Part shown: positions 2,912-57,193 of the stretch, piece after piece
Position numbering within the stretch: the stretch's first letter is position 1
Layout: the number at the start of each line of letters is the position of its first letter
IMG/VR virus record: IMGVR_UViG_3300013102_000007
Location: 1 to 64,000 of that record
DNA length: 64,000 nucleotides
Source of the DNA: a virus
Strand: one strand, 5' to 3'
Notes under the pieces: model-generated
Seen by the model: only the letters and a program-made list of their open reading frames with translations
Told to the model about the DNA's origin: nothing
Databases searched by the model: none
Program-made: the position numbers and the translations under genes

Positions 2912-2986
2912 TACGGGTTAACTCAGCGGTAGAGTGATACTTCAATTCGAAGTAACAAGTCATAGGTTCGAATCCTATACCCGTAG
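2912..2986 (+). tRNA. tRNA-like gene with aberrant anticodon loop
   Basis: Perfect 7-bp acceptor TACGGGT/ACCCGTA, D arm ACTC-AGCGGTA-GAGT, T arm ATAGG-TTCGAAT-CCTAT. The anticodon arm is TACTT(C)-AATTC-(G)AAGTA with no U33 and no 7-nt canonical loop. Confidence 0.55.
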
Positions 2987-3012
2987 CAAACGAAAACAAA
3001 AAATTTAAAGTT

Positions 3013-3246
3013 ATGAAAACACTATTGTTACCTGTAAATTTACAGCAGGGTCTATTTATTGATGAAAATAACATTGTATTAGGTGTTTACACTCATCACA
3101 CTAAAATAATTGTTCCAAAATTTCCTTTTACGGGCAATGATTTAACTATCCCCGACAACATGCGGGATTATGAAATTAAAGAAAATTATGCAGATAGTTT
3201 TGGACTTAATATGTGGACTAATAAAGGCAGAAAGGAGTTATACTAA
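3013..3246 (+). CDS. hypothetical protein
   Basis: 77-aa ORF, first gene of a tightly packed plus-strand array. Confidence 0.6.
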   Translation: MKTLLLPVNLQQGLFIDENNIVLGVYTHHTKIIVPKFPFTGNDLTIPDNMRDYEIKENYADSFGLNMWTNKGRKELY

Positions 3247-3248
3247 TC

Positions 3249-3419
3249 ATGAGCAACAATAAAAAGAAACAAATACAGGAACGTTTAGAATATCTAAGGC
3301 ACGAAATTCAAAACGAACAAATCAGCTACGGGGAAATTGTAGAACTGCAAGGTTTAGCAGACGATATAGAACCAAACGATTTTGAATTATTGGAATGGGC
3401 ACAACCTAATTATAACTAG
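3249..3419 (+). CDS. hypothetical small protein (56 aa)
   Basis: ATG 3249 to TAG 3417-3419 fills the gap between neighbours exactly. MSNNKKKQIQERLEYLRHEIQNEQISYGEIVELQGLADDIEP... Confidence 0.55.
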   Translation: MSNNKKKQIQERLEYLRHEIQNEQISYGEIVELQGLADDIEPNDFELLEWAQPNYN

Positions 3420-3421
3420 TT

Positions 3422-3682
3422 ATGGCAGATCAAACAAATTTTAACCTACTAACATTAAAAACTTTATTGTTAGATACAATCACATATTTAAAATTTGGTA
3501 GTCATTTGGCACCAAATTACAAGGCAGCAAAATATAGCTTATGTGATTTGTCAGGACAAAAACGAACTATTACAAATAAACAATTACTTCACTTAATAGG
3601 AACCGTGTATAAAGACAATGACAAAGAGTCTGATTTTTGGGCTGTCATTGATAAGTTTAACGCGGCTAAATTTTTAAATTAA
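3422..3682 (+). CDS. hypothetical protein
   Basis: 86-aa ORF in the packed array. Confidence 0.6.
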   Translation: MADQTNFNLLTLKTLLLDTITYLKFGSHLAPNYKAAKYSLCDLSGQKRTITNKQLLHLIGTVYKDNDKESDFWAVIDKFNAAKFLN

Positions 3683-3690
3683 AAACTATC

Positions 3691-3789
3691 ATGCAAAATA
3701 TTTTAAACTCAGACCAATTTAAGGCAGCTACAGTTATACTAAGTATAGCTTATGCCGTATCTATTTACCTTTATTTAATCAACTGGTAA
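3691..3789 (+). CDS. mini membrane peptide (32 aa)
   Basis: MQNILNSDQFKAATVILSIAYAVSIYLYLINW with one TM. Its stop overlaps the next ATG (TAATG). Confidence 0.4.
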   Translation: MQNILNSDQFKAATVILSIAYAVSIYLYLINW

Positions 3790-3932
3790 TGGTTACACAG
3801 GAATTAACAATTAGTCAAAAGACTTTTACCGATATGATTAGCGGACTAATCGCAAGCGGTGTAACGTTTAAGGCGTTCGAATCAACAACAAACAAAAATT
3901 ATATAATTATTCAATTCTTAGGAGGTTATTAA
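3789..3932 (+). CDS. hypothetical small protein (47 aa)
   Basis: ATG overlapping the previous stop. It ends 1 nt before the ATG of 3934. Confidence 0.45.
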   Translation: MVTQELTISQKTFTDMISGLIASGVTFKAFESTTNKNYIIIQFLGGY

Positions 3933-3933
3933 A

Positions 3934-4401
3934 ATGAAAAACACAGTAACAAGCTTTAAAGAAAAAGCAGAGCAAAACGGGGCAATAGATGCAATTGCAA
4001 TTACAGACGAAAAAGGTAATCGTGTAGGTATTTCTAAATATGAAAACGGTGAGGCCGTTATTTCAGTAGATTTTAAAAATGTAGGTTATATGGCCTCATT
4101 AAATAATGAAGGTAAACAAGCTATAATAAAATTCTTAAGTGAAGAGGCTACAGAGGTAAAAACTAAACGGGAACTATACGTATTAGTTGGTATACCCGCT
4201 GAAAATGCACCCGTTCTTTTTTCAAATACGCATTTTCTAGTGTATGCTGATAAAAATGAAGCTGATCGAGCTTGTAAAATGTTCAACGATTACTTAGTAG
4301 AAAACAATAAAATGGATATGGGCAAGTTTGTAGTTGATACGTTGGAAAACGCTAAACTATCATTCCCAAATGGTAAGTTTGATTACAGCTTACTAAATTA
4401 A
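3934..4401 (+). CDS. hypothetical protein
   Basis: 155-aa ORF. Confidence 0.7.
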   Translation: MKNTVTSFKEKAEQNGAIDAIAITDEKGNRVGISKYENGEAVISVDFKNVGYMASLNNEGKQAIIKFLSEEATEVKTKRELYVLVGIPAENAPVLFSNTHFLVYADKNEADRACKMFNDYLVENNKMDMGKFVVDTLENAKLSFPNGKFDYSLLN

Positions 4402-4408
4402 GGCATAT

Positions 4409-4470
4409 CCCTGCAATTATGGTAAAGGCTGAAATAATAAGGCTTAACTGTTCGAATCAGTTTGCAGGGG
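4409..4470 (+). ncRNA. 62-nt tRNA-like element lacking an anticodon arm
   Basis: 7-bp acceptor-like stem CCCTGCA/TGCAGGG. Canonical T arm AACTG-TTCGAAT-CAGTT. One further hairpin AUUAU-(GGUAAAGGCUGAA)-AUAAU with a GG-containing loop. No anticodon stem-loop. Confidence 0.55.
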
Positions 4471-4511
4471 CTAAGGTTACAATGTCGTAGCTTTAATTAA
4501 AAATTATTACA

Positions 4512-4790
4512 ATGAAAAATAACTCATTAAACAGCATTTTAGCTGCATTTTTAACTGTAGCAAGTACAGAGGCCGAAACAATTGAAAGATTAGAAAAAAC
4601 TTTATCAGATTATAAAGCTAATCCAAATTTAGAAACTCTTTCCACCCTATCTGCGGCTGCACATTTAGTAGATTTAAAATGGCAACATTTGAAATTTGAG
4701 GAATTGCAAAAAGAAAACCCACAACCTACAAAAAACACTGACGAATCAGACACTGAATTTCTTAAAAAATTTGGTTTCAGTGCAAATTAG
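4512..4790 (+). CDS. hypothetical protein
   Basis: 92-aa ORF. Its stop at 4788-4790 lies 1 nt before hammerhead HH1. Confidence 0.65.
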   Translation: MKNNSLNSILAAFLTVASTEAETIERLEKTLSDYKANPNLETLSTLSAAAHLVDLKWQHLKFEELQKENPQPTKNTDESDTEFLKKFGFSAN

Positions 4791-4791
4791 A

Positions 4792-4849
4792 GTTTATCTG
4801 ATGAGACTTTAATAGTCGAAATAGTAGTGTAAAAGCTACTATCATAAAC
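4792..4849 (+). ncRNA. hammerhead ribozyme, type I (HH1)
   Basis: Stem I GUUUAU/AUAAAC. Core CUGAUGA 4798-4804. Stem II GACU-UUAAU-AGUC. GAA 4818-4820. Stem III AUAGUAG-loop-CUACUAU. C17 at 4843. Confidence 0.85.
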
Positions 4850-4866
4850 AAATAAAAATTAAAATC

Positions 4867-5094
4867 ATGGAAAATCAAACATTTAAATCAACAGAATTAA
4901 TTAAAGGCACTAGATATTTTTTAGATGGTCTTAAAGATGTTAGTGGTGTATTTAGTCACATTAAGGACGGTCGGGTTTATTTTACCGATTTCAAAGAAGA
5001 GAGGCCACAAATTATGCCATACTTAGAGAAAAACGGAGACGATACAGATTTCAATCAACAACTTTTTGATATTTGGGCAGTAGAAAAAGTTTAA
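4867..5094 (+). CDS. hypothetical protein (TRYxLD..KDVSGV family)
   Basis: 75-aa ORF, paralogous to 13954-14154 and 14157-14363. Its stop codon lies inside stem I of HH2. Confidence 0.65.
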   Translation: MENQTFKSTELIKGTRYFLDGLKDVSGVFSHIKDGRVYFTDFKEERPQIMPYLEKNGDDTDFNQQLFDIWAVEKV

Positions 5095-5147
5095 CTGATG
5101 AGGCTTAAAATAGCCGAAACACGGGGTGAAAATCCCCTGTCTTAAAC
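5089..5147 (+). ncRNA. hammerhead ribozyme, type I (HH2)
   Basis: Stem I GUUUAA/UUAAAC. Core CUGAUGA 5095-5101. Stem II GGCU-UAAAAU-AGCC. GAA 5116-5118. Stem III ACA(C)GGGG-loop-CCCCUGU. C17 at 5141. Confidence 0.85.
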
Positions 5148-5164
5148 AATATAATCACGAAATT

Positions 5165-5641
5165 ATGAACAAAGAAGTAACAAACGGGTATGCTAACCTA
5201 AGAAGGTTAAAACCTACAGCACCATTTAGCCAACGTTTAAACGATTTTATTAATGATCGGGCAGAGGGATTAAGATATATAGATGGTGCTTTTCCTGAAC
5301 TATCATTTGAGGAATTTAAAGCAGAATTTAAAAGCAGTGGTGTAATGCCTATCAGTAACGAACATTGTGAAAACAATATTTTCGGGGACATTGAAACAAA
5401 CATAGCTTTTAGGGCTTGGCATGACTCAATACATTTAGAACTAAACGAAGGTTTTGAATATTTTTCTGAAGCTATTGTAGCATTTAAACAAATGAACGAA
5501 TTGCCTTTAGATTGGGTTTTTGAAAGAAATTTAATTTATTGTGAAGTTATAGGGCAAGCTGCCTACCATAGAAACACAGGCAATTTTGTTGAAGATCAAA
5601 GAGAATTTACAATTAACTTTTTAGAATCGGAAAAATTTTAA
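5165..5641 (+). CDS. hypothetical protein
   Basis: The track ORF 5126-5641 starts at a GTG inside HH2. The first ATG (5165) lies 23 nt after the predicted cleavage site. Confidence 0.65.
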   Translation: MNKEVTNGYANLRRLKPTAPFSQRLNDFINDRAEGLRYIDGAFPELSFEEFKAEFKSSGVMPISNEHCENNIFGDIETNIAFRAWHDSIHLELNEGFEYFSEAIVAFKQMNELPLDWVFERNLIYCEVIGQAAYHRNTGNFVEDQREFTINFLESEKF

Positions 5642-5645
5642 AGCT

Positions 5646-5831
5646 ATGAAAACTATAAAAATAACAGATGAAAACTTTTTAAATCTAAAGGAATTTGGTC
5701 ATGTAGTACCGAAAGATTACAGCAAATTTAAAGTATCTAAAGAGTATTTAGTTTGTGGCTTAGATGAAACTGATTTATTAAAAGTAAGATGTACTCAAAA
5801 TTGTCCAGTTAATATAAAAATAGTAGATTAA
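5646..5831 (+). CDS. hypothetical protein
   Basis: 61-aa ORF in the packed array. Confidence 0.6.
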   Translation: MKTIKITDENFLNLKEFGHVVPKDYSKFKVSKEYLVCGLDETDLLKVRCTQNCPVNIKIVD

Positions 5832-5835
5832 AGCC

Positions 5836-6072
5836 ATGCAAAATATCGAAATTAAGCTGCCACAACTCAACAAAGGTAATTGTTTATTATTTACCACTCT
5901 GTTTAAATTAAAGTATCCTAAAGCTAAAGTAATTGTTTGCTGGAATAAAAAGAGTAATATAGTTTCCTTTAGTGCTGTCTTACATGGTAAGAGGTATTTT
6001 TACAAACGTAAAGATAGGAAACAAAGTAAATTCTGGTTTAATGGTCATGTAGTTCCAATGGAACATAAATAA
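5836..6072 (+). CDS. hypothetical protein
   Basis: 78-aa basic ORF in the packed array. Confidence 0.6.
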   Translation: MQNIEIKLPQLNKGNCLLFTTLFKLKYPKAKVIVCWNKKSNIVSFSAVLHGKRYFYKRKDRKQSKFWFNGHVVPMEHK

Positions 6073-6080
6073 AATCTGTT

Positions 6081-6302
6081 ATGAAACAAAAAGAATTATT
6101 ACAGCATATAAAAGACAATTCTATTTGTCTAAATCAATTAAGTTATGATAAATTAACTGGCAACTCTTATGAATTAAGAGCAAAAACAGGGGGATTTAAA
6201 ACCTTTATCCTTTACCAAAATCCAGAGTCTGATTATTGGAATATTTATTTATCAGAGGGTAACGAAATAGCTAAAATAGAAAACAATTTTAACAACTTTT
6301 AA
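6081..6302 (+). CDS. hypothetical protein
   Basis: 73-aa ORF in the packed array. Confidence 0.6.
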   Translation: MKQKELLQHIKDNSICLNQLSYDKLTGNSYELRAKTGGFKTFILYQNPESDYWNIYLSEGNEIAKIENNFNNF

Positions 6303-6311
6303 AAACTGGTT

Positions 6312-7508
6312 ATGAAAAATATTAAAATCTATGGTGATGCTATATCGGCTAACCTTTACCTAATCACAGACTTTTTAAAACGAAGCTCTATACAATTTAG
6401 TTGGGTTAGTTCTCTAACAAATACTAATGCTATTCGCTTTGAAGATGGAACTATCATATATAACCCTACAGTTAACGAAGTAGCAGATAAATTGGGATGG
6501 GTAGCAGAGCCAAAATGTACTGAATATGATGTATCTATTTTTGGCGGTGGTGTAGCTGGTTTAAGTGCAGCTGTTTACGCAGCATCTGAGGGTTTAAGAA
6601 CGGTAATAGTTGAACGTGAAACAATAGGGGGACAGGCCGGAACAAGTTCTTTAATCGAAAATTATTTAGGTTTTCCAAAAGGTATTTCGGGCGCTGAACT
6701 GGCTTTAAGGGCAAGGGAACAGGCTTTAAAATTTGGAGTTGAAATTCTATTACTAAAAGAAGGTATTAAAGGAGTTTCTAAAGATAATAATATTAACATT
6801 CAATTAGCTACAGGTGAAACAATAACCTCTAAAACTACAATCTGTGCTACAGGTGTAGAATACGCAAAATTGAACTTAGCAAACGAAAACAAGTACCTTA
6901 ATAAAGGTTTGTATTATGGTGCTGGTGCAAGTGAAGCTCCATTTTGTAAACACAAAGATGTTTATGTTGTTGGAGGTGGTAATTCAGCAGGTCAGGCCGC
7001 TGTCTACTTTTCTAAATTTGCTAAACGTGTCTACATGGTAATTCGAAAAGGAAATTTATCTGAAACTATGTCAGATTATTTAGTAAAACATATTTCAACT
7101 ATCACAAACATTTCAATACTATATAATTCAGAGGTTACAGACCTTAGCGGTAAAAAAGGTTTAGAAGCTATTAAAATATTTAATAGCAAAACTAATCAAA
7201 CCGACTTTTTTAAAACATCTAAATTATTTGTGTGTATAGGTGGAAAACCAAATACAGATTGGGCTAAAGATACTGCAATTTGCAGGGATCGTAACGGCTA
7301 TCTTTACACTGGAAACGATTTAATAGAATTAGACCAGTATAAGGAATGTTGGAAACATGACAGACAGCCTTTTCATTTAGAAACTAGTGTTGCAGGTGTG
7401 TTTGCCGCTGGTGATGTTAGATTTAATTCTGTAAAAAGAGTAGCTTCAGCAGTAGGCGAAGGGGCTATGGCAGTAACACAAATACATCAATATTTATCAA
7501 AATTGTAA
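6312..7508 (+). CDS. thioredoxin-reductase-like FAD/NAD(P)H oxidoreductase lacking the redox CxxC, with N-terminal extension
   Basis: FAD Rossmann GGGVAGLSAAVYAA, second dinucleotide site VVGGGNSAGQAA, C-terminal GVFAAGDV. The position of the TrxB CATC site reads YGAGASEA. Confidence 0.8.
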   Translation: MKNIKIYGDAISANLYLITDFLKRSSIQFSWVSSLTNTNAIRFEDGTIIYNPTVNEVADKLGWVAEPKCTEYDVSIFGGGVAGLSAAVYAASEGLRTVIVERETIGGQAGTSSLIENYLGFPKGISGAELALRAREQALKFGVEILLLKEGIKGVSKDNNINIQLATGETITSKTTICATGVEYAKLNLANENKYLNKGLYYGAGASEAPFCKHKDVYVVGGGNSAGQAAVYFSKFAKRVYMVIRKGNLSETMSDYLVKHISTITNISILYNSEVTDLSGKKGLEAIKIFNSKTNQTDFFKTSKLFVCIGGKPNTDWAKDTAICRDRNGYLYTGNDLIELDQYKECWKHDRQPFHLETSVAGVFAAGDVRFNSVKRVASAVGEGAMAVTQIHQYLSKL

Positions 7509-7514
7509 AAAACA

Positions 7515-7545
7515 TTTGCATAAGCAAATAATTTATTTATCTTAG
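7515..7545 (+). promoter_or_regulatory. promoter candidate TTTG-N19-TATCTTAG
   Basis: TTTG 7515-7518, 19-nt spacer, TATCTTAG 7538-7545, 24 nt upstream of ATG 7569. Confidence 0.5.
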
Positions 7546-7568
7546 CATTATATTTAAAAACTAAAATT

Positions 7569-7991
7569 ATGAATGTACAGGAAATTATTAAAAGAGCTAC
7601 TGCAAATGGTGGTGGCCTAACGTTTAAAGCTGATTACAGTGCGCCTAAATCTGGCTATATGGTAGCCTTAACAGGTGGTTTGGTTTGTAAAGAGTCAGAA
7701 CTTGAAAAGGTTATGTTTAGGTATTTACATGACCATCATCACATTACAACAGGTGAAAATTATTACTTTGGTTTATGGTTAAAAGATGGTGTTGCTTACT
7801 TAGATGTTAGTCAAAACATTCAGGATAAAGAATACGCTGTGTTTCAAGGTATAGCCCGTGGACAAAAGAGCATTTACCATATTGATAGCAATAAAATTAT
7901 TGATCTACCGACCGGACAAAAAACCGGAACTACAGAACAACAACTATCATACGCTCGTCAAAAAGCTGAACAAATATTTCAAACTCTATAG
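7569..7991 (+). CDS. hypothetical protein
   Basis: 140-aa ORF downstream of a promoter candidate. Confidence 0.65.
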   Translation: MNVQEIIKRATANGGGLTFKADYSAPKSGYMVALTGGLVCKESELEKVMFRYLHDHHHITTGENYYFGLWLKDGVAYLDVSQNIQDKEYAVFQGIARGQKSIYHIDSNKIIDLPTGQKTGTTEQQLSYARQKAEQIFQTL

Positions 7992-8037
7992 CCATGCAAC
8001 TATTATTATTAATCCTAGTGCGCTGTGCCTGTGTGGC

Positions 8038-8205
8038 ATGGTGTGCTTTAATTTTATCTTTCTTATGAAAAAGCTAAGCCCAAAATTTTATCTTATGCTT
8101 AGGAAGCTATTAATTATAGACCTTCTTTTGCAAATACCTCAGATGATAATTATTATAGCATTAATGTTTGCTATGTTATTAGGTCATTTTATTTACATTC
8201 GTTAA
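8038..8205 (+). CDS. possible small membrane protein
   Basis: In-frame ATG within track ORF 7858-8205, lying after the end of 7569-7991. Very hydrophobic product. Start uncertain. Confidence 0.3.
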   Translation: MVCFNFIFLMKKLSPKFYLMLRKLLIIDLLLQIPQMIIIIALMFAMLLGHFIYIR

Positions 8206-8223
8206 CCTTTAAAATTTAAAGTC

Positions 8224-8862
8224 ATGTTACAACTAACAAACTCAACAGACACATTAAAATTTGTAGCCTTTATTCAAGAGGCAATGAACTACGTTAGCTA
8301 TTTAACTCCTACTAAAATAAATTCAGGTGGGTGTGGTATTTTTGCCAGAGCGTTACATAAACTATTATCAGATAATAATATTGAGTCTGAAATTATAGCT
8401 TTATACTTTGATGAAAAAAGTGATAAGGCAGAGAAAAATTTAATAGATTACGTAAATAATAACAATAAAAAAGTATTGAGTGAAGCTGGTGCCGATCACA
8501 TAGTTTTAAAAGTTAATGAAATTTATGTAGATTCTACAGGTTTAGTAAATATGGCCGCTTTAATGAGTAGAAATACTGTTAAGTTAACATTAGATCAACT
8601 AAACGACATAATTGATAAAGGTGAATGGAATGAAGTATTTGATAGGGAACAAGAACCTTTTATAATTGAAAAATTACAGGAAGTTTTTAATAACTACGAA
8701 AATTATCATTTCGGTTTGTATATTAACAAACAATTAGCAGAAAGAAAAATCAGATTGTCCGATCATACTATTAAAACCGCTAAACGTTTACAAAGGGAAG
8801 CCATGAGTAGTATGTTTGGGTTTTCAGGTAATATAAATAACAACAATAATAGTCCATTTTAA
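8224..8862 (+). CDS. hypothetical protein
   Basis: 212-aa ORF with an Asn-rich C-terminus. Confidence 0.65.
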   Translation: MLQLTNSTDTLKFVAFIQEAMNYVSYLTPTKINSGGCGIFARALHKLLSDNNIESEIIALYFDEKSDKAEKNLIDYVNNNNKKVLSEAGADHIVLKVNEIYVDSTGLVNMAALMSRNTVKLTLDQLNDIIDKGEWNEVFDREQEPFIIEKLQEVFNNYENYHFGLYINKQLAERKIRLSDHTIKTAKRLQREAMSSMFGFSGNINNNNNSPF

Positions 8863-8888
8863 TTTTCACATTTTAACAAACTAACGTC

Positions 8889-9197
8889 ATGAGAAAGATT
8901 TTCATCGTAGCAATCTACAAACTATCATCGATTCAAAAAACAGTAATCGGTACATTATCAGAACATTTAGTAGGTGATAACCACACAGTTCACCACAAAA
9001 TTTGCACAGGTCTTATTATAGGATTTATGGGCGTACTTTTAAGTAAAACAGGGGATGGTGCTTGGCATGTAGTGTGCGATTGGGCTGGCTATGGTTTACA
9101 CGGTGTAGGTATGTTACCATTTGTTGAGCCAGTGGCAAAAGCCTATGCCAAACGAATTAACAAAATTGATAACAAAGGGGGTAATAGTGGAGACTAA
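8889..9197 (+). CDS. hypothetical membrane protein
   Basis: 102-aa ORF with hydrophobic segments. Confidence 0.55.
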   Translation: MRKIFIVAIYKLSSIQKTVIGTLSEHLVGDNHTVHHKICTGLIIGFMGVLLSKTGDGAWHVVCDWAGYGLHGVGMLPFVEPVAKAYAKRINKIDNKGGNSGD

Positions 9198-9342
9198 TCC
9201 AATTCAAAAACAGCGCACAAAAGAAAGTGTAGAAGTAAGAGGGGTATGCGCGGCCATTCAAGCAATGGCGTACCCCTCATTTGAAGACTTAAACAAACAG
9301 TTAAATATATTTGGTTATCACCTAGTTAAAAATGCAAAATAA
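9121..9342 (+). CDS. hypothetical protein (start uncertain)
   Basis: Track ORF overlapping the 3' end of 8889-9197. A GTG at 9187 would reduce the overlap to 11 nt. Confidence 0.4.
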   Translation: MLSQWQKPMPNELTKLITKGVIVETNPIQKQRTKESVEVRGVCAAIQAMAYPSFEDLNKQLNIFGYHLVKNAK

Positions 9343-57097: not shown

Positions 57098-57122
57098 TGT
57101 TTTTAAATTTTAATTTTTATTG

Positions 57123-57193
57123 TTTGCTCTGCGAGACTCGAACTCGCATCTACTGCGGAGAAGCAGCTTTCTACCAAATTGAACTAAGAGCAA
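57123..57193 (-). tRNA. tRNA-like gene, anticodon uncertain (UCC if the 7-nt loop UCUCCGC is used)
   Basis: Acceptor TTGCTCT/AGAGCAA and T arm GCGAG-TTCGAGT-CTCGC are perfect. The anticodon arm folds either as a 7-nt loop with C33 and a 2-nt variable region, or as a 6-nt loop. Confidence 0.5.

Follow-up and report, generated by a model that had tools for sequence, protein, structure and literature searches.

Why a phage gene block whose cistrons otherwise lie close together should leave three consecutive gaps that appear to hold structured RNA, and what such structures would do to the message, is the question raised by the 64,000-nucleotide stretch of IMG/VR record IMGVR_UViG_3300013102_000007 analysed here (the window). 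From the letters, gap 4402-4511 had been read as holding a tRNA-like element and gaps 4791-4866 and 5095-5164 as holding one hammerhead ribozyme each (HH1 and HH2), together punctuating a polycistronic early mRNA. The gaps separate four + strand ORFs, and the RNA elements mapped around them lie on that strand as well: an orphan of 155 aa preceded by AGGAGG (3934..4401), which is upstream of gap 1; an orphan of 92 aa (4512..4790) between gap 1 and HH1; an ORF of 75 aa (4867..5094) flanked by HH1 and HH2; and, downstream of HH2, an ORF of 158 aa assigned to PHROG 7806, of unknown function (5165..5641). The other junctions of the block had been described as tight. Most of them are, at -20 to +11 nt, with exceptions at 7509-7568 (60 nt), at 7992-8066, where the gap holds a terminator-like hairpin, and at 9198-9331.

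The terminase places this phage near Flavobacterium, Cellulophaga and Tenacibaculum phages. Distant homologues of the 5165-5641 product are found in early gene blocks of Autographiviridae phages, one of them being gp01, the first gene of Pseudomonas phage Pf1 ERZ-2017. We infer early expression for the block in the window. A sigma-70 scan was uninformative, returning 70 sites where 73.8 would be expected; in the probable host phylum, promoter signals of other kinds are in use as well. Among 5.8 billion proteins the product of 3934-4401 matched only itself, and a whole-database search with the product of 4512-4790 gave only the window's own contig. IMG/VR searches with the proteins of 5165-5641 and 6312-7508 gave no relatives, megablast of 3000-9000 found nothing in GenBank phages, and Pfam, PHROGs, PADLOC and a PDB sequence search gave no usable function for the flanking proteins. 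The neighbouring genes being orphans, no syntenic relative is available for a comparison of the locus.

Judged from their sequence, positions 4792-4849 and 5089-5147 are complete and genuine type I hammerhead motifs. HH1 (4791..4851, a span that takes in the flanking A(-1) at 4791 and AA at +7 and +8) consists of stem I at 4792-4797/4844-4849 (GUUUAU/AUAAAC), the core CUGAUGA at 4798-4804, stem II at 4805-4817, GAA at 4818-4820, stem III at 4821-4842 and C17 at 4843. HH2 (5088..5149, with A(-1) at 5088) follows the same plan, with stem I at 5089-5094/5142-5147 (GUUUAA/UUAAAC), CUGAUGA at 5095-5101, stem II at 5102-5115, GAA at 5116-5118, stem III at 5119-5140, where one C is bulged, and C17 at 5141. 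Both possess the invariant core C3 U4 G5 A6 N7 G8 A9 with G12 A13 A14, the G10.1-C11.1 pair, and the A15.1-U16.1 pair followed by a residue 17 other than G (A4821-U4842/C4843 in HH1, A5119-U5140/C5141 in HH2). Core and C17 positions bear out the cleavage sites proposed earlier, with cutting predicted at C4843|A4844 and C5141|U5142. Between the two copies there are compensatory differences in stems I, II and III. The minimum free energy folds of 4791-4850 and 5088-5148 are the hammerhead, with stems II and III loop-capped and stem I open; when more of the surrounding sequence is folded, this weak stem I faces competing pairings. HH1 indeed occupies its gap, the TAG stop codon (4788-4790) of ORF 4512-4790 standing 1 nt before it. 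HH2 is likewise a ribozyme motif, but it is not wholly inside gap 5095-5164: the 5' strand of its stem I contains the TAA stop codon (5092-5094) of ORF 4867-5094.

No Rfam hammerhead family reached its gathering score in the window. The best match was RAGATH-1-hammerhead (RF03152), with 30.2 bits for HH2 and 27.3 bits for HH1 against a gathering score of 56.3. The best-scoring members of the phage family described below also fall short of the RF03152 threshold, so that the miss is a matter of model coverage and not of these two copies. HH1 and HH2 share with RAGATH-1 the CUGAUGAG-ACUU...CGAAAC signature, a long stem III and a short open stem I. They lack its additional conserved hairpin 5' of stem I, the corresponding columns being aligned with mismatches or deletions, and, unlike in RAGATH-1, their stem II is a regular 4-bp helix with a loop of 5-6 nt. 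A covariance model built from 19 unrelated IMG/VR copies, all from other phage contigs and with the window not included (R1), scored HH1 at 48.1 bits (E = 1.5e-13) and HH2 at 47.6 bits (E = 2.3e-13). These were its only matches in the 64-kb window, and the next best reached 10 bits (128 kb, both strands).

The comparison adds HH1 and HH2 to a large family of intercistronic phage hammerheads of about 50 nt, for the most part without annotation, that has at least 170 copies in IMG/VR. Often 2-8 copies form arrays between small genes, and some sit inside tRNA arrays (loci L121 and L028). As a rule, the related copies, of which there are more than 150, show the succession of stop codon, hammerhead, short leader and start codon: in most the distance between the upstream stop codon and stem I is -6 to +5 nt, and in over half the next ATG ORF begins 19-29 nt after the cleavage site. 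Its members are confined to intercistronic positions and, with few exceptions, to viruses; the hammerhead pattern gave 13 matches in 185,579 cellular species genomes versus at least 120 viral contigs. Two cultured phages, Elemovirus elemoB and pelagiphage HTVC019P, carry one unannotated copy each, in one case overlapped by a probably mis-called start codon. In elemoB (NC_062741) the predicted site is position 4049 of locus L125, at about 17218 of the record on the minus strand; the copy of HTVC019P is near position 3002.

Several features of the family point to selection on the RNA. Residue A(-1) is present in 97% of copies, stem I is exactly 6 bp and A+7 is present in 92%, all of which hold for HH1 and HH2; 3' of the cleavage site the consensus continues with U+1 (95%), C+6 (90%) and A+8 (68%), HH1 being unusual in having A at +1 (3% of the family). 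In loci L001-L003, stem I, core and stem II are near-identical to those of HH2, and stem III covaries. Across 123 distinct sequences, 99.2% of stem cells were paired, versus 69.5% after shuffling and about 28-35% in slid controls, and double-sided changes numbered 487 versus 117, being seen in 13 of 15 pairs; the alignment behind these figures was fitted to the model, and stem II is partly fixed by the search pattern. The fixed 6-bp stem I and the conserved flanking A argue for selection on a folded, probably tertiary-stabilised ribozyme. Stem I has no loops, and loop II is constrained to CUUNANUAG in the family; together with the flanking A residues and the exact length of stem I, this is a hint of a tertiary contact between stem I and loop II. 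It is very improbable, in our view, that the motifs are inactive look-alikes that do not cleave in vivo. Such a reading could appeal to the lack of a match at Rfam gathering score, to a minimal-looking architecture without the loops for a classical stem I/loop II contact, and to several inactive hammerhead-like RNAs in earlier work (Perreault et al. 2011, PMC3088659). Against it stand a complete core in more than 170 copies, the very strong covariation, and the conservation of flanking A residues beside a stem I held at 6 bp.

Cleavage at the predicted sites would leave leaders of 23 nt in both cases, exactly as the sequence-only reading had it: leader 1 at 4844..4866 (AUAAACAAAUAAAAAUUAAAAUC), before ATG 4867, and leader 2 at 5142..5164 (UUAAACAAUAUAAUCACGAAAUU), before ATG 5165. 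Both are A-rich and have no Shine-Dalgarno sequence. Leader 1 is unstructured (0 kcal/mol for 4844-4900) and leader 2 essentially so, with leaders and first codons open. The same reading had expected relatives that keep the ribozymes to keep this spacing, on pain of its own refutation, and as an exact number it is lost in them. Leader length in the family has a median of 26 nt (IQR 22-34), with joint modes at 23 and 26 nt of 9% each, when only an ATG at or beyond +7 is counted, which avoids TTG and ATG codons inside stem I; in contigs with the same stems I and II as the window, leaders are mostly 13-17 nt. Copies from one genome resemble one another in leader length more than copies from different genomes do. 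The (A/U)UAAACAA shared by the starts of the two leaders is there in the letters, but it is composed of the 3' strand of stem I and the conserved AA, and so belongs to the ribozyme consensus and is not a separate leader signal.

The remaining gap is less clear-cut. What had been called a tRNA-like element in gap 4402-4511 does possess an acceptor and a T arm, but it is not a tRNA by standard tests. The element (4409..4470) is minimal, with these two helices only. Its acceptor, 4409-4415/4463-4469 (CCCUGCA/UGCAGGG), has 7 of 7 Watson-Crick pairs, and the contiguous T arm, 4446-4462 (AACUG-UUCGAAU-CAGUU), has a 5-bp stem and a loop that fits UUCRANY, so that acceptor and T stem form a coaxial stack of 12 bp. 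Residue U4408 stands at -1, and the discriminator G4470 is followed by CUAAG, an N-CU trailer like that of about half of the phage's own tRNAs. The linker (4416-4445) is 30 nt long, begins AUUAUGGUAAA, and contains an AUGGU motif common to elements of the L001, L003 and L143 type. There is no D arm and no anticodon arm with a 7-nt loop in 4409-4470, and the 'anticodon stem' drawn by ARAGORN -mt is almost unpaired. ARAGORN in bacterial mode (default, -ps and -ps80) called no tRNA there, and in a 151-nt search the Rfam tRNA clan gave nothing at E <= 10 and the tmRNA model no match; the Rfam tmRNA and tRNA models do weakly match the analogues in L001 and L003. Other weak Rfam matches in gap 1 (tpke11, RAGATH-30, and, on the minus strand, DUF2693-FD; E 0.3-6) we attribute to chance. 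An origin as an attP remnant was considered and rejected: of a tRNA gene, an attP core duplicates no more than the 3' portion, and here there is a 5' acceptor strand too.

Only two of the three gaps might, then, contain a processing element, 4409-4470 being a tRNA gene decayed by internal deletion or a chance look-alike, and gap 1 perhaps holding some other signal, for example the 9-bp hairpin with 2 G-U pairs that its minimum free energy fold places at 4472..4495, without a U tract, between the element and ATG 4512. We regard this as a serious possibility, if not the one we favour. Besides the silence of the tRNA searches, chance alone should produce a bare acceptor plus T-arm motif 0.37 times in a 64-kb window, and did so in about 30% of simulated windows; no homologous locus was found that shows conservation of 4409-4470; and both linker length and trailer are unlike those of well-supported mini tRNA-like elements, the 41 nt with a hairpin from 4470 to ATG 4512 comparing with 14-nt trailers in L154 and L001. 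Yet the gene block has just three large gaps, and the element occupies one of them, on the same strand as the genes; for the + strand of gap 1 the chance expectation falls to about 3e-4. Its helices are fully Watson-Crick and its T loop canonical, with U at -1 and AUGGU in the linker. Moreover, mini tRNA-like elements are enriched about 8-fold in hammerhead loci (12 versus about 1.6 expected), with 11 of the 12 co-oriented with the hammerheads, and in L154 such an element stands 14 nt before an ATG and a hammerhead cleavage site lies 15 nt before the next. MAFFT did not bring the acceptor strands of the mini-element sub-families into register, and no covariance model was obtained for them. Upstream, a tRNA-shaped gene at 2912..2986 (Rfam tRNA, 44.6 bits; ARAGORN Asn(att)) stands at the head of the gene block on the + strand, precedes ATG 3013 by 26 nt, and has a non-canonical anticodon loop (A33, C37, anticodon AUU).

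We consider it probable, at about 0.7, that the hammerheads, and less certainly the tRNA mimic, cut a polycistronic RNA and thereby uncouple downstream genes from their upstream neighbours. The small-gene block (3013 to ~8016) would be transcribed as one such RNA, and each hammerhead would fold as it emerges and cut itself after C4843 and C5141. By hammerhead chemistry, the upstream piece would be left with a 2',3'-cyclic phosphate end and would still carry, as its 3' structure, stems II and III, and the downstream piece would start with a 5'-OH. The weak, A/U-rich 6-bp stem I would melt after cutting, which would free an open, A-rich leader of 23 nt, about one 30S footprint and similar to the 5' UTR of a Bacteroidota primary transcript. 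Translation and decay of 4867-5094 and 5165-5641 would thus become independent of what lies upstream. The coaxial acceptor/T-arm helix is a minimal RNase P substrate, and in polycistronic RNA, elements of tRNA shape mark the places where cistrons are cut apart. More tentatively, 4409-4470 may be a stripped-down tRNA mimic of this kind, in which that helix is joined by a GG-containing D-loop analogue: host RNase P would cut before C4409 and a 3' endonuclease after G4470, marking a boundary before gene 4512-4790, and the odd tRNA at 2912-2986 may mark the boundary before the first gene in the same way.

Active hammerheads could also serve other ends. In one alternative, which strikes us as unlikely, their effect is negative or conditional, either because cleavage leads to fragment decay as a timed early shut-off, or because cleavage is gated by the terminating ribosome and would report translation of the upstream gene. 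The stop codon does overlap or abut the 5' strand of stem I in HH2 and in most family members, a ribosome terminating there would open both stem I and the core, and the halovirus ribozyme has been suggested to modulate transcript stability (Perreault et al. 2011, PMC3088659). Cleavage is irreversible, however, and one chance to fold is enough, so that ribosome gating would amount at most to a delay, and open leaders of 5' UTR-like length fit productive translation downstream. Slightly more remote still seems the idea that punctuation is not the purpose, and that genes spread as cassettes by way of a conserved 31-nt block, or that excised RNA is re-joined or circularised. The RNA between two hammerheads would have the 3' strand of stem I at its 5' end and a hammerhead body with a 2',3'-cyclic phosphate at its 3' end, and either the ribozyme or an RtcB-type ligase could join the ends; a stem I common within a genome makes such re-ligation or circularisation of excised units a possibility. 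In keeping with this, stem I is cross-compatible in 21 of 51 pairs of adjacent hammerheads on the same contig, versus 7% of cross-contig pairs, while stem III differs in 50 of the 51, and hammerhead-flanked genes are small, variable and mostly orphans. A common stem I would equally follow from tandem duplication or gene conversion, and HH1 and HH2 themselves cross-pair at only 5 of 6 positions, the core-proximal 1.1-2.1 pair being an A.A mismatch. Splicing or circles were also raised by Perreault et al. (PMC3088659), who sought spliced or circular products and found none, and the tight stop-to-start geometry is what an expression role predicts.

Cutting of the message into separately expressed pieces, the reading we prefer, repeats a published hypothesis. 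Perreault et al. (2011, PMC3088659) proposed that hammerheads cut long phage transcripts into gene-length mRNAs, and the hammerheads in the window probably do cut long messages into single-gene pieces. The locus adds no new kind of element. The comparison sharpens the question of what phage hammerheads do, whose role in bacteria and phages when genomically encoded is still called unresolved (PMC6765202): the family is viral and intercistronic, has a 6-bp stem I with A flanks, abuts stop codons, leaves a short leader, and co-occurs with mini tRNA-like elements in equivalent positions. The copies in cultured Elemovirus (Flavobacterium sp. BAL314) and HTVC019P make the processing hypothesis directly testable by RNA-end mapping, and phage annotation pipelines would benefit from a model of the family. 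A broader proposal, that the hammerhead cassette and the tRNA mimic (the latter through host RNase P/RNase Z) are interchangeable 'cistron cutters' of lytic phages in several host phyla, is speculative and on balance doubtful. Were it true, early polycistronic RNA would be converted into single-gene mRNAs with a host-specific distance from 5' end to ATG (~23 nt here, ~14-15 nt in L154-type marine phages), a viral analogue of mitochondrial tRNA punctuation.

The nearest known systems are the type I hammerheads of phages and prophages described by Perreault et al. (2011, PMC3088659), which have the same catalytic core and three stems, are intergenic, and occur as several one-strand copies flanking single genes or short gene blocks; phage hammerhead triplets were found to cleave in vitro and in E. 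coli. The examples tested there were mostly type II or pseudoknot-stabilised and came from prophages of Clostridium, Azorhizobium and Agrobacterium, whereas HH1 and HH2 are of a 50-nt type whose stem I is open, fixed at 6 bp and flanked by conserved A residues, and occur in an uncultured lytic-type, flavobacterial-like phage. The sequence of their sub-family does not occur in the searched part of the supplement text. The HHphage variant of haloviruses HF1/HF2 (PMC3088659) lies 13 nt upstream of an early-gene start codon, and the 5' end of an HF2 transcript maps within 3 nt of the hammerhead site; unlike HH1 and HH2, it is a core variant from archaeal viruses that occurs once, where the transcript starts, and not between cistrons. 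Theta (HDV-like) ribozymes (PMC10879173) are also small self-cleaving ribozymes of phages associated with tRNA-type elements and RNA end formation, but they are of another class and trim tRNA 3' ends, whereas HH1 and HH2 precede protein genes.

The element at 4409-4470 can be compared with RNase P minihelix substrates and with the tRNA-like domain of tmRNA, in which the acceptor strand is followed by a stemless D-loop analogue, a place that AUUAUGGUAAA would take here; compared with tRNA and tmRNA, the element has no anticodon or D arm, G3-U70, tag ORF or encoded CCA. On the side of synthetic biology, RiboJ is an engineered insulator made from a type III satellite-RNA hammerhead and a hairpin, and a RiboJ-type hammerhead placed just upstream of a ribosome-binding region fixes the downstream 5' end independently of the sequence before it. 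The hammerheads in the window may be the natural counterpart of such ribozyme insulators, differing from RiboJ in that the phage family is natural and type I, and in that its predicted 5' end has no hairpin.

Two complete type I hammerhead ribozymes, HH1 (4791-4851) and HH2 (5088-5149), can be read from the window, and the best supported interpretation is that they would cleave their own transcript and thereby uncouple cistrons. HH1 runs from A4791 through GUUUAU, CUGAUGA, GACU-UUAAU-AGUC and GAA into stem III (AUAGUAGU-GUAAAA-GCUACUAU) and C4843, where cleavage is predicted, followed by AUAAAC and AA; HH2 comprises A5088, GUUUAA, CUGAUGA, GGCU-UAAAAU-AGCC, GAA, stem III ACA(C)GGGG-UGAAAAU-CCCCUGU, C5141, the predicted cleavage site, UUAAAC and AA. 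In isolation, each motif has the hammerhead shape as its minimum-free-energy structure, and the predicted post-cleavage leaders with first codons are nearly unstructured (0 and -1.4 kcal/mol). Rfam 15 returned only RAGATH-1-hammerhead at sub-threshold scores (30.2 and 27.3 bits; gathering score 56.3), and independent copies were therefore gathered from IMG/VR. A covariance model of 19 of these 50-nt copies, with the window copies excluded, recovered 4792-4849 (48.1 bits, E 1.5e-13) and 5089-5147 (47.6 bits, E 2.3e-13) with filters off, and no other site above 10 bits on either window strand. The full core and this independent model (E ~1e-13) bear out both hammerhead calls and predicted cleavage sites of the sequence-only reading. 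Its placement of both ribozymes in gaps holds for HH1, whereas HH2 begins inside the preceding ORF, because its stem I 5' strand contains that ORF's TAA stop.

Across all fetched contigs the model found 174 copies. In 123 distinct sequences, 99.2% of cells were paired (69.5% shuffled, 28-35% slid), with 487 double-sided changes against 117 when shuffled (slid: no comparison), in an alignment fitted to the covariance model whose stem II is partly fixed by the search pattern, stems I and III being free. Among 151 non-redundant copies, an A directly precedes stem I in 97%, stem I is exactly 6 bp with G first in 91% and a seventh pair possible in only 4, and the consensus after cleavage is U (95%), N4, C (90%), A (92%), A (68%). 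A hammerhead this short would need a tertiary contact, and the conserved flanking A residues and a loop II constrained to CUUNANUAG may provide it. Three contigs from the IMG/VR pattern scan (L001-L003) have stem I, core and stem II near-identical to HH2 and a stem III unrelated to it, yet self-complementary; a looser pattern matched at least 120 further contigs. Cellular genomes nearly lack the pattern (13 matches in 185,579 species genomes). Arrays of 2-8 copies lie between small genes in many contigs (e.g. L065, L048, L052, L113), and in most copies the upstream stop codon ends -6 to +5 nt from stem I. Unannotated copies occur in two cultured phages, Elemovirus elemoB (L125 3997-4054, 47.6 bits) and Pelagibacter phage HTVC019P (L126 2948-3008, 47.9 bits). 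The annotated GTG start of elemoB (NC_062741) gp69 (L125 4035) lies inside stem III of this hammerhead, and the true start is more likely the in-frame ATG at L125 4077, 28 nt past the predicted cleavage site; a 21-codon ORF there ends with TAG exactly at stem I. Same-family hammerheads are also found within or just before phage tRNA arrays (L121 2595-2653, between two tRNA genes; L028 23-70), which suggests an additional role in tRNA precursor processing. L003, which pairs a hammerhead like HH2 with a tRNA-like element, also shows a sub-threshold Y RNA-like (YrlA) match (43.3 bits; gathering score 69) adjoining a tRNA match with a long insertion (2985-3112, 3180-3303).

Both predicted leaders (4844-4866 and 5142-5164) span exactly 23 nt from the new 5' end to the start codon, ATG 4867 or ATG 5165. 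In the family, the first downstream ATG ORF follows predicted cleavage at a median of 26 nt (IQR 22-34), 48% of leaders measure 20-27 nt, and 23 and 26 nt are joint modes (9% each). Equal length is expected by chance in ~4% of random pairs; adjacent leaders in one contig were equal in 6/44 pairs and within 2 nt in 19/44, against 21% expected. Leader length is thus somewhat genome-specific, a pattern that the window's equal leaders fit. The sequence-only reading named loss of the 23-nt spacing in relatives that keep the ribozymes as a result that would refute it. Among 26 metagenome and 3 viral contigs sharing the GUUUAW stem I and stem II of HH1/HH2, most have 13-17 nt leaders and several 22-33 nt, but L002 alone matches 23 nt; in the cultured Elemovirus copy the leader measures 28 nt. 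Exact spacing, although true of both window leaders, is therefore refuted as a conserved feature, and the conserved trait is a short open leader starting with the stem I strand. Likewise, the (A/U)UAAACAA common to both leaders is the ribozyme's own consensus, since it consists of the stem I 3' strand and the conserved AA (151 copies).

The hammerheads lie among small ORFs densely packed on the + strand from 3013 to ~8016, a block whose label "early" we infer from gene content and position. Between 3013 and 7508, large non-coding gaps are confined to 4402-4511, 4791-4866 and 5095-5164; a seeming gap at 3683-3788 is occupied by a 32-codon ORF. The near-uniformly tight junctions described earlier hold for the rest of this stretch (-20 to +11 nt) but not downstream, where sizeable gaps occur at 7509-7568 (60 nt), 9198-9331 and 7992-8066, the last of which holds a terminator-like hairpin of 13 bp (8017-8047). 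Early promoters are presumably located in 1710-2911, 1.2 kb without ORFs from a terminator-like hairpin (1733-1758) to an odd tRNA; a sigma-70 scan was uninformative for a Bacteroidota-type host. That tRNA-shaped gene (2912-2986, +; 44.6 bits as tRNA) ends 26 nt upstream of ATG 3013, the block's first ORF, and has the anticodon loop C-A-A-U-U-C-G (A33 instead of U33, C37, anticodon AUU); this gene may serve as a fourth element of punctuation and not in decoding. The window has 18 tRNA calls, including a cluster at 57.1-59.7 kb and one (57122-57193, -) that ARAGORN labels tRNA-??? with a 2-nt 'anticodon' (ct); none of this phage's tRNAs encodes CCA. The contig (ENA ERZ27252506, 78.5 kb) is found in one assembly only. 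PHROGs identified portal, large terminase, tail fibre and DNA transfer protein; the terminase shares 28.5% identity with Flavobacterium elemovirus terminases and has further matches in phages of Cellulophaga and Tenacibaculum, a relationship that fits A-rich leaders without a Shine-Dalgarno sequence. Genes adjoining the RNA elements are orphans. Directly downstream of HH2, 5165-5641 encodes a 158-aa protein of PHROG 7806, whose distant homologues sit in early blocks of Autographiviridae (T7-like) phages infecting Pseudomonas and Caulobacter. Pseudomonas phage Pf1 ERZ-2017 has the homologue as its first gene and Caulobacter phage Percy as gp6, in a block also encoding a tRNA nucleotidyltransferase; this suggests a host-takeover or anti-defence role.

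The first gap had been assigned a tRNA-like element (4409-4470, +), of which the acceptor stem and T arm stand: 4409-4415 pairs perfectly with 4463-4469, a 5-bp stem with canonical T loop UUCGAAU directly precedes the 3' acceptor strand, and the element has U at -1 and a trailer G-CUAAG, an N-CU trailer also being found on roughly half of the phage's own tRNAs. However, only 30 nt separate the arms, D and anticodon stems are absent, and neither ARAGORN in bacterial mode (even with -ps80) nor the Rfam tRNA clan calls it; ARAGORN mitochondrial mode proposes a shape that lacks the D arm and whose anticodon stem is almost unpaired. The alternative of a remnant or chance look-alike draws on the bare acceptor-plus-T-arm motif being weak on its own, since it occurs 0.37 times per simulated window; for this particular gap and strand, the chance of an occurrence is ~3e-4. 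Indirect but real comparative support comes from hammerhead-bearing contigs, in which mini elements made up of an acceptor stem and a T arm with an 8-35-nt linker number 12 against ~1.6 expected, 11 of them on the hammerhead strand and many sharing the linker start AUGG(U/A) with the window (AUUAUGGUAAA). The marine contigs closest to HH2 carry the same element at a fixed place, in two acceptor-stem versions, each self-complementary. L154 has the order ORF stop, ~50 nt, tRNA-like element, 14 nt, ATG, three ORFs, hammerhead, 15 nt, ATG, and L001 the order ORF stop, hammerhead, ~60 nt, tRNA-like element, 14 nt, ATG; both element kinds thus stand at equivalent distances before start codons, as a shared end-forming role would predict. 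The window element is unlike the marine ones in its longer linker and in its trailer, which is 41 nt long and contains a 9-bp hairpin (4472-4495). We regard it as probably a genuine structured tRNA mimic, and the odds that it is a processing site as about even. The mini elements themselves form a family of 40-43 nt (7-bp acceptor stem, 9-12-nt linker AUGG(U/A)..., T arm, often an N-CUAA trailer) on the hammerhead strand of phage contigs: L019 12262-12221 and 8449-8407, L035 7814-7855 and 8786-8827, L058 332-290, L001 8800-8840, and L143, L144, L154, L162, L165 and L166, in these six ~700 nt ahead of the hammerhead. In L154 and L001 the element follows ~50 conserved nt (AAUGAGAGUUUUAUA...), so the RNA may be ~95 nt. 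We know of no description of this family.

In the proposed mechanism, the RNA would cut itself co-transcriptionally at the hammerhead, releasing downstream an mRNA that starts with a 5'-OH and a short leader of standard form, and upstream a fragment whose end is capped by the ribozyme body; neighbouring cistrons would thereby be uncoupled. That the window hammerheads are inactive look-alikes is unlikely, given a complete core kept across the family and very strong covariation. The stop codon in or beside stem I would also suit hammerheads that trigger decay or whose cleavage is gated by translation. A cassette, ligation or circularisation role gains from contigs with at least two hammerheads (e.g. 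L065, L113, L102, L116, L018), where stem I is fully cross-compatible in 21/51 adjacent same-contig pairs (41%), compared with 7% of pairs taken from different contigs, and stem III differs in 50/51 adjacent pairs; HH1 and HH2, however, are mismatched at the critical stem I pair when cross-paired. Shared stem I suggests either that the conserved 5' block evolves in concert or that function requires a common stem I, for example to re-ligate excised units. Self-cleavage with cistron uncoupling is still the reading we favour.

Our literature search found no paper describing hammerheads from phages of Flavobacterium, Cellulophaga or Pelagibacter, and none that considers leader length for natural hammerheads between phage cistrons. 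Gene-flanking hammerheads in prophages have been described (Perreault et al. 2011, PMC3088659), three hammerhead triplets cleaving in vitro and one in E. coli, and a halovirus hammerhead lies 13 nt before a start codon, in agreement with a mapped 5' end. The same authors proposed that long phage transcripts are processed into gene-length mRNAs, which a 2019 review (PMC6765202) still gives as an untested suggestion; in a later preprint, type I hammerheads from DNA phages count as previously described. The punctuation interpretation is thus a repeat of a published hypothesis, to which our analysis adds regularities at the family level and cultured test systems at hand.
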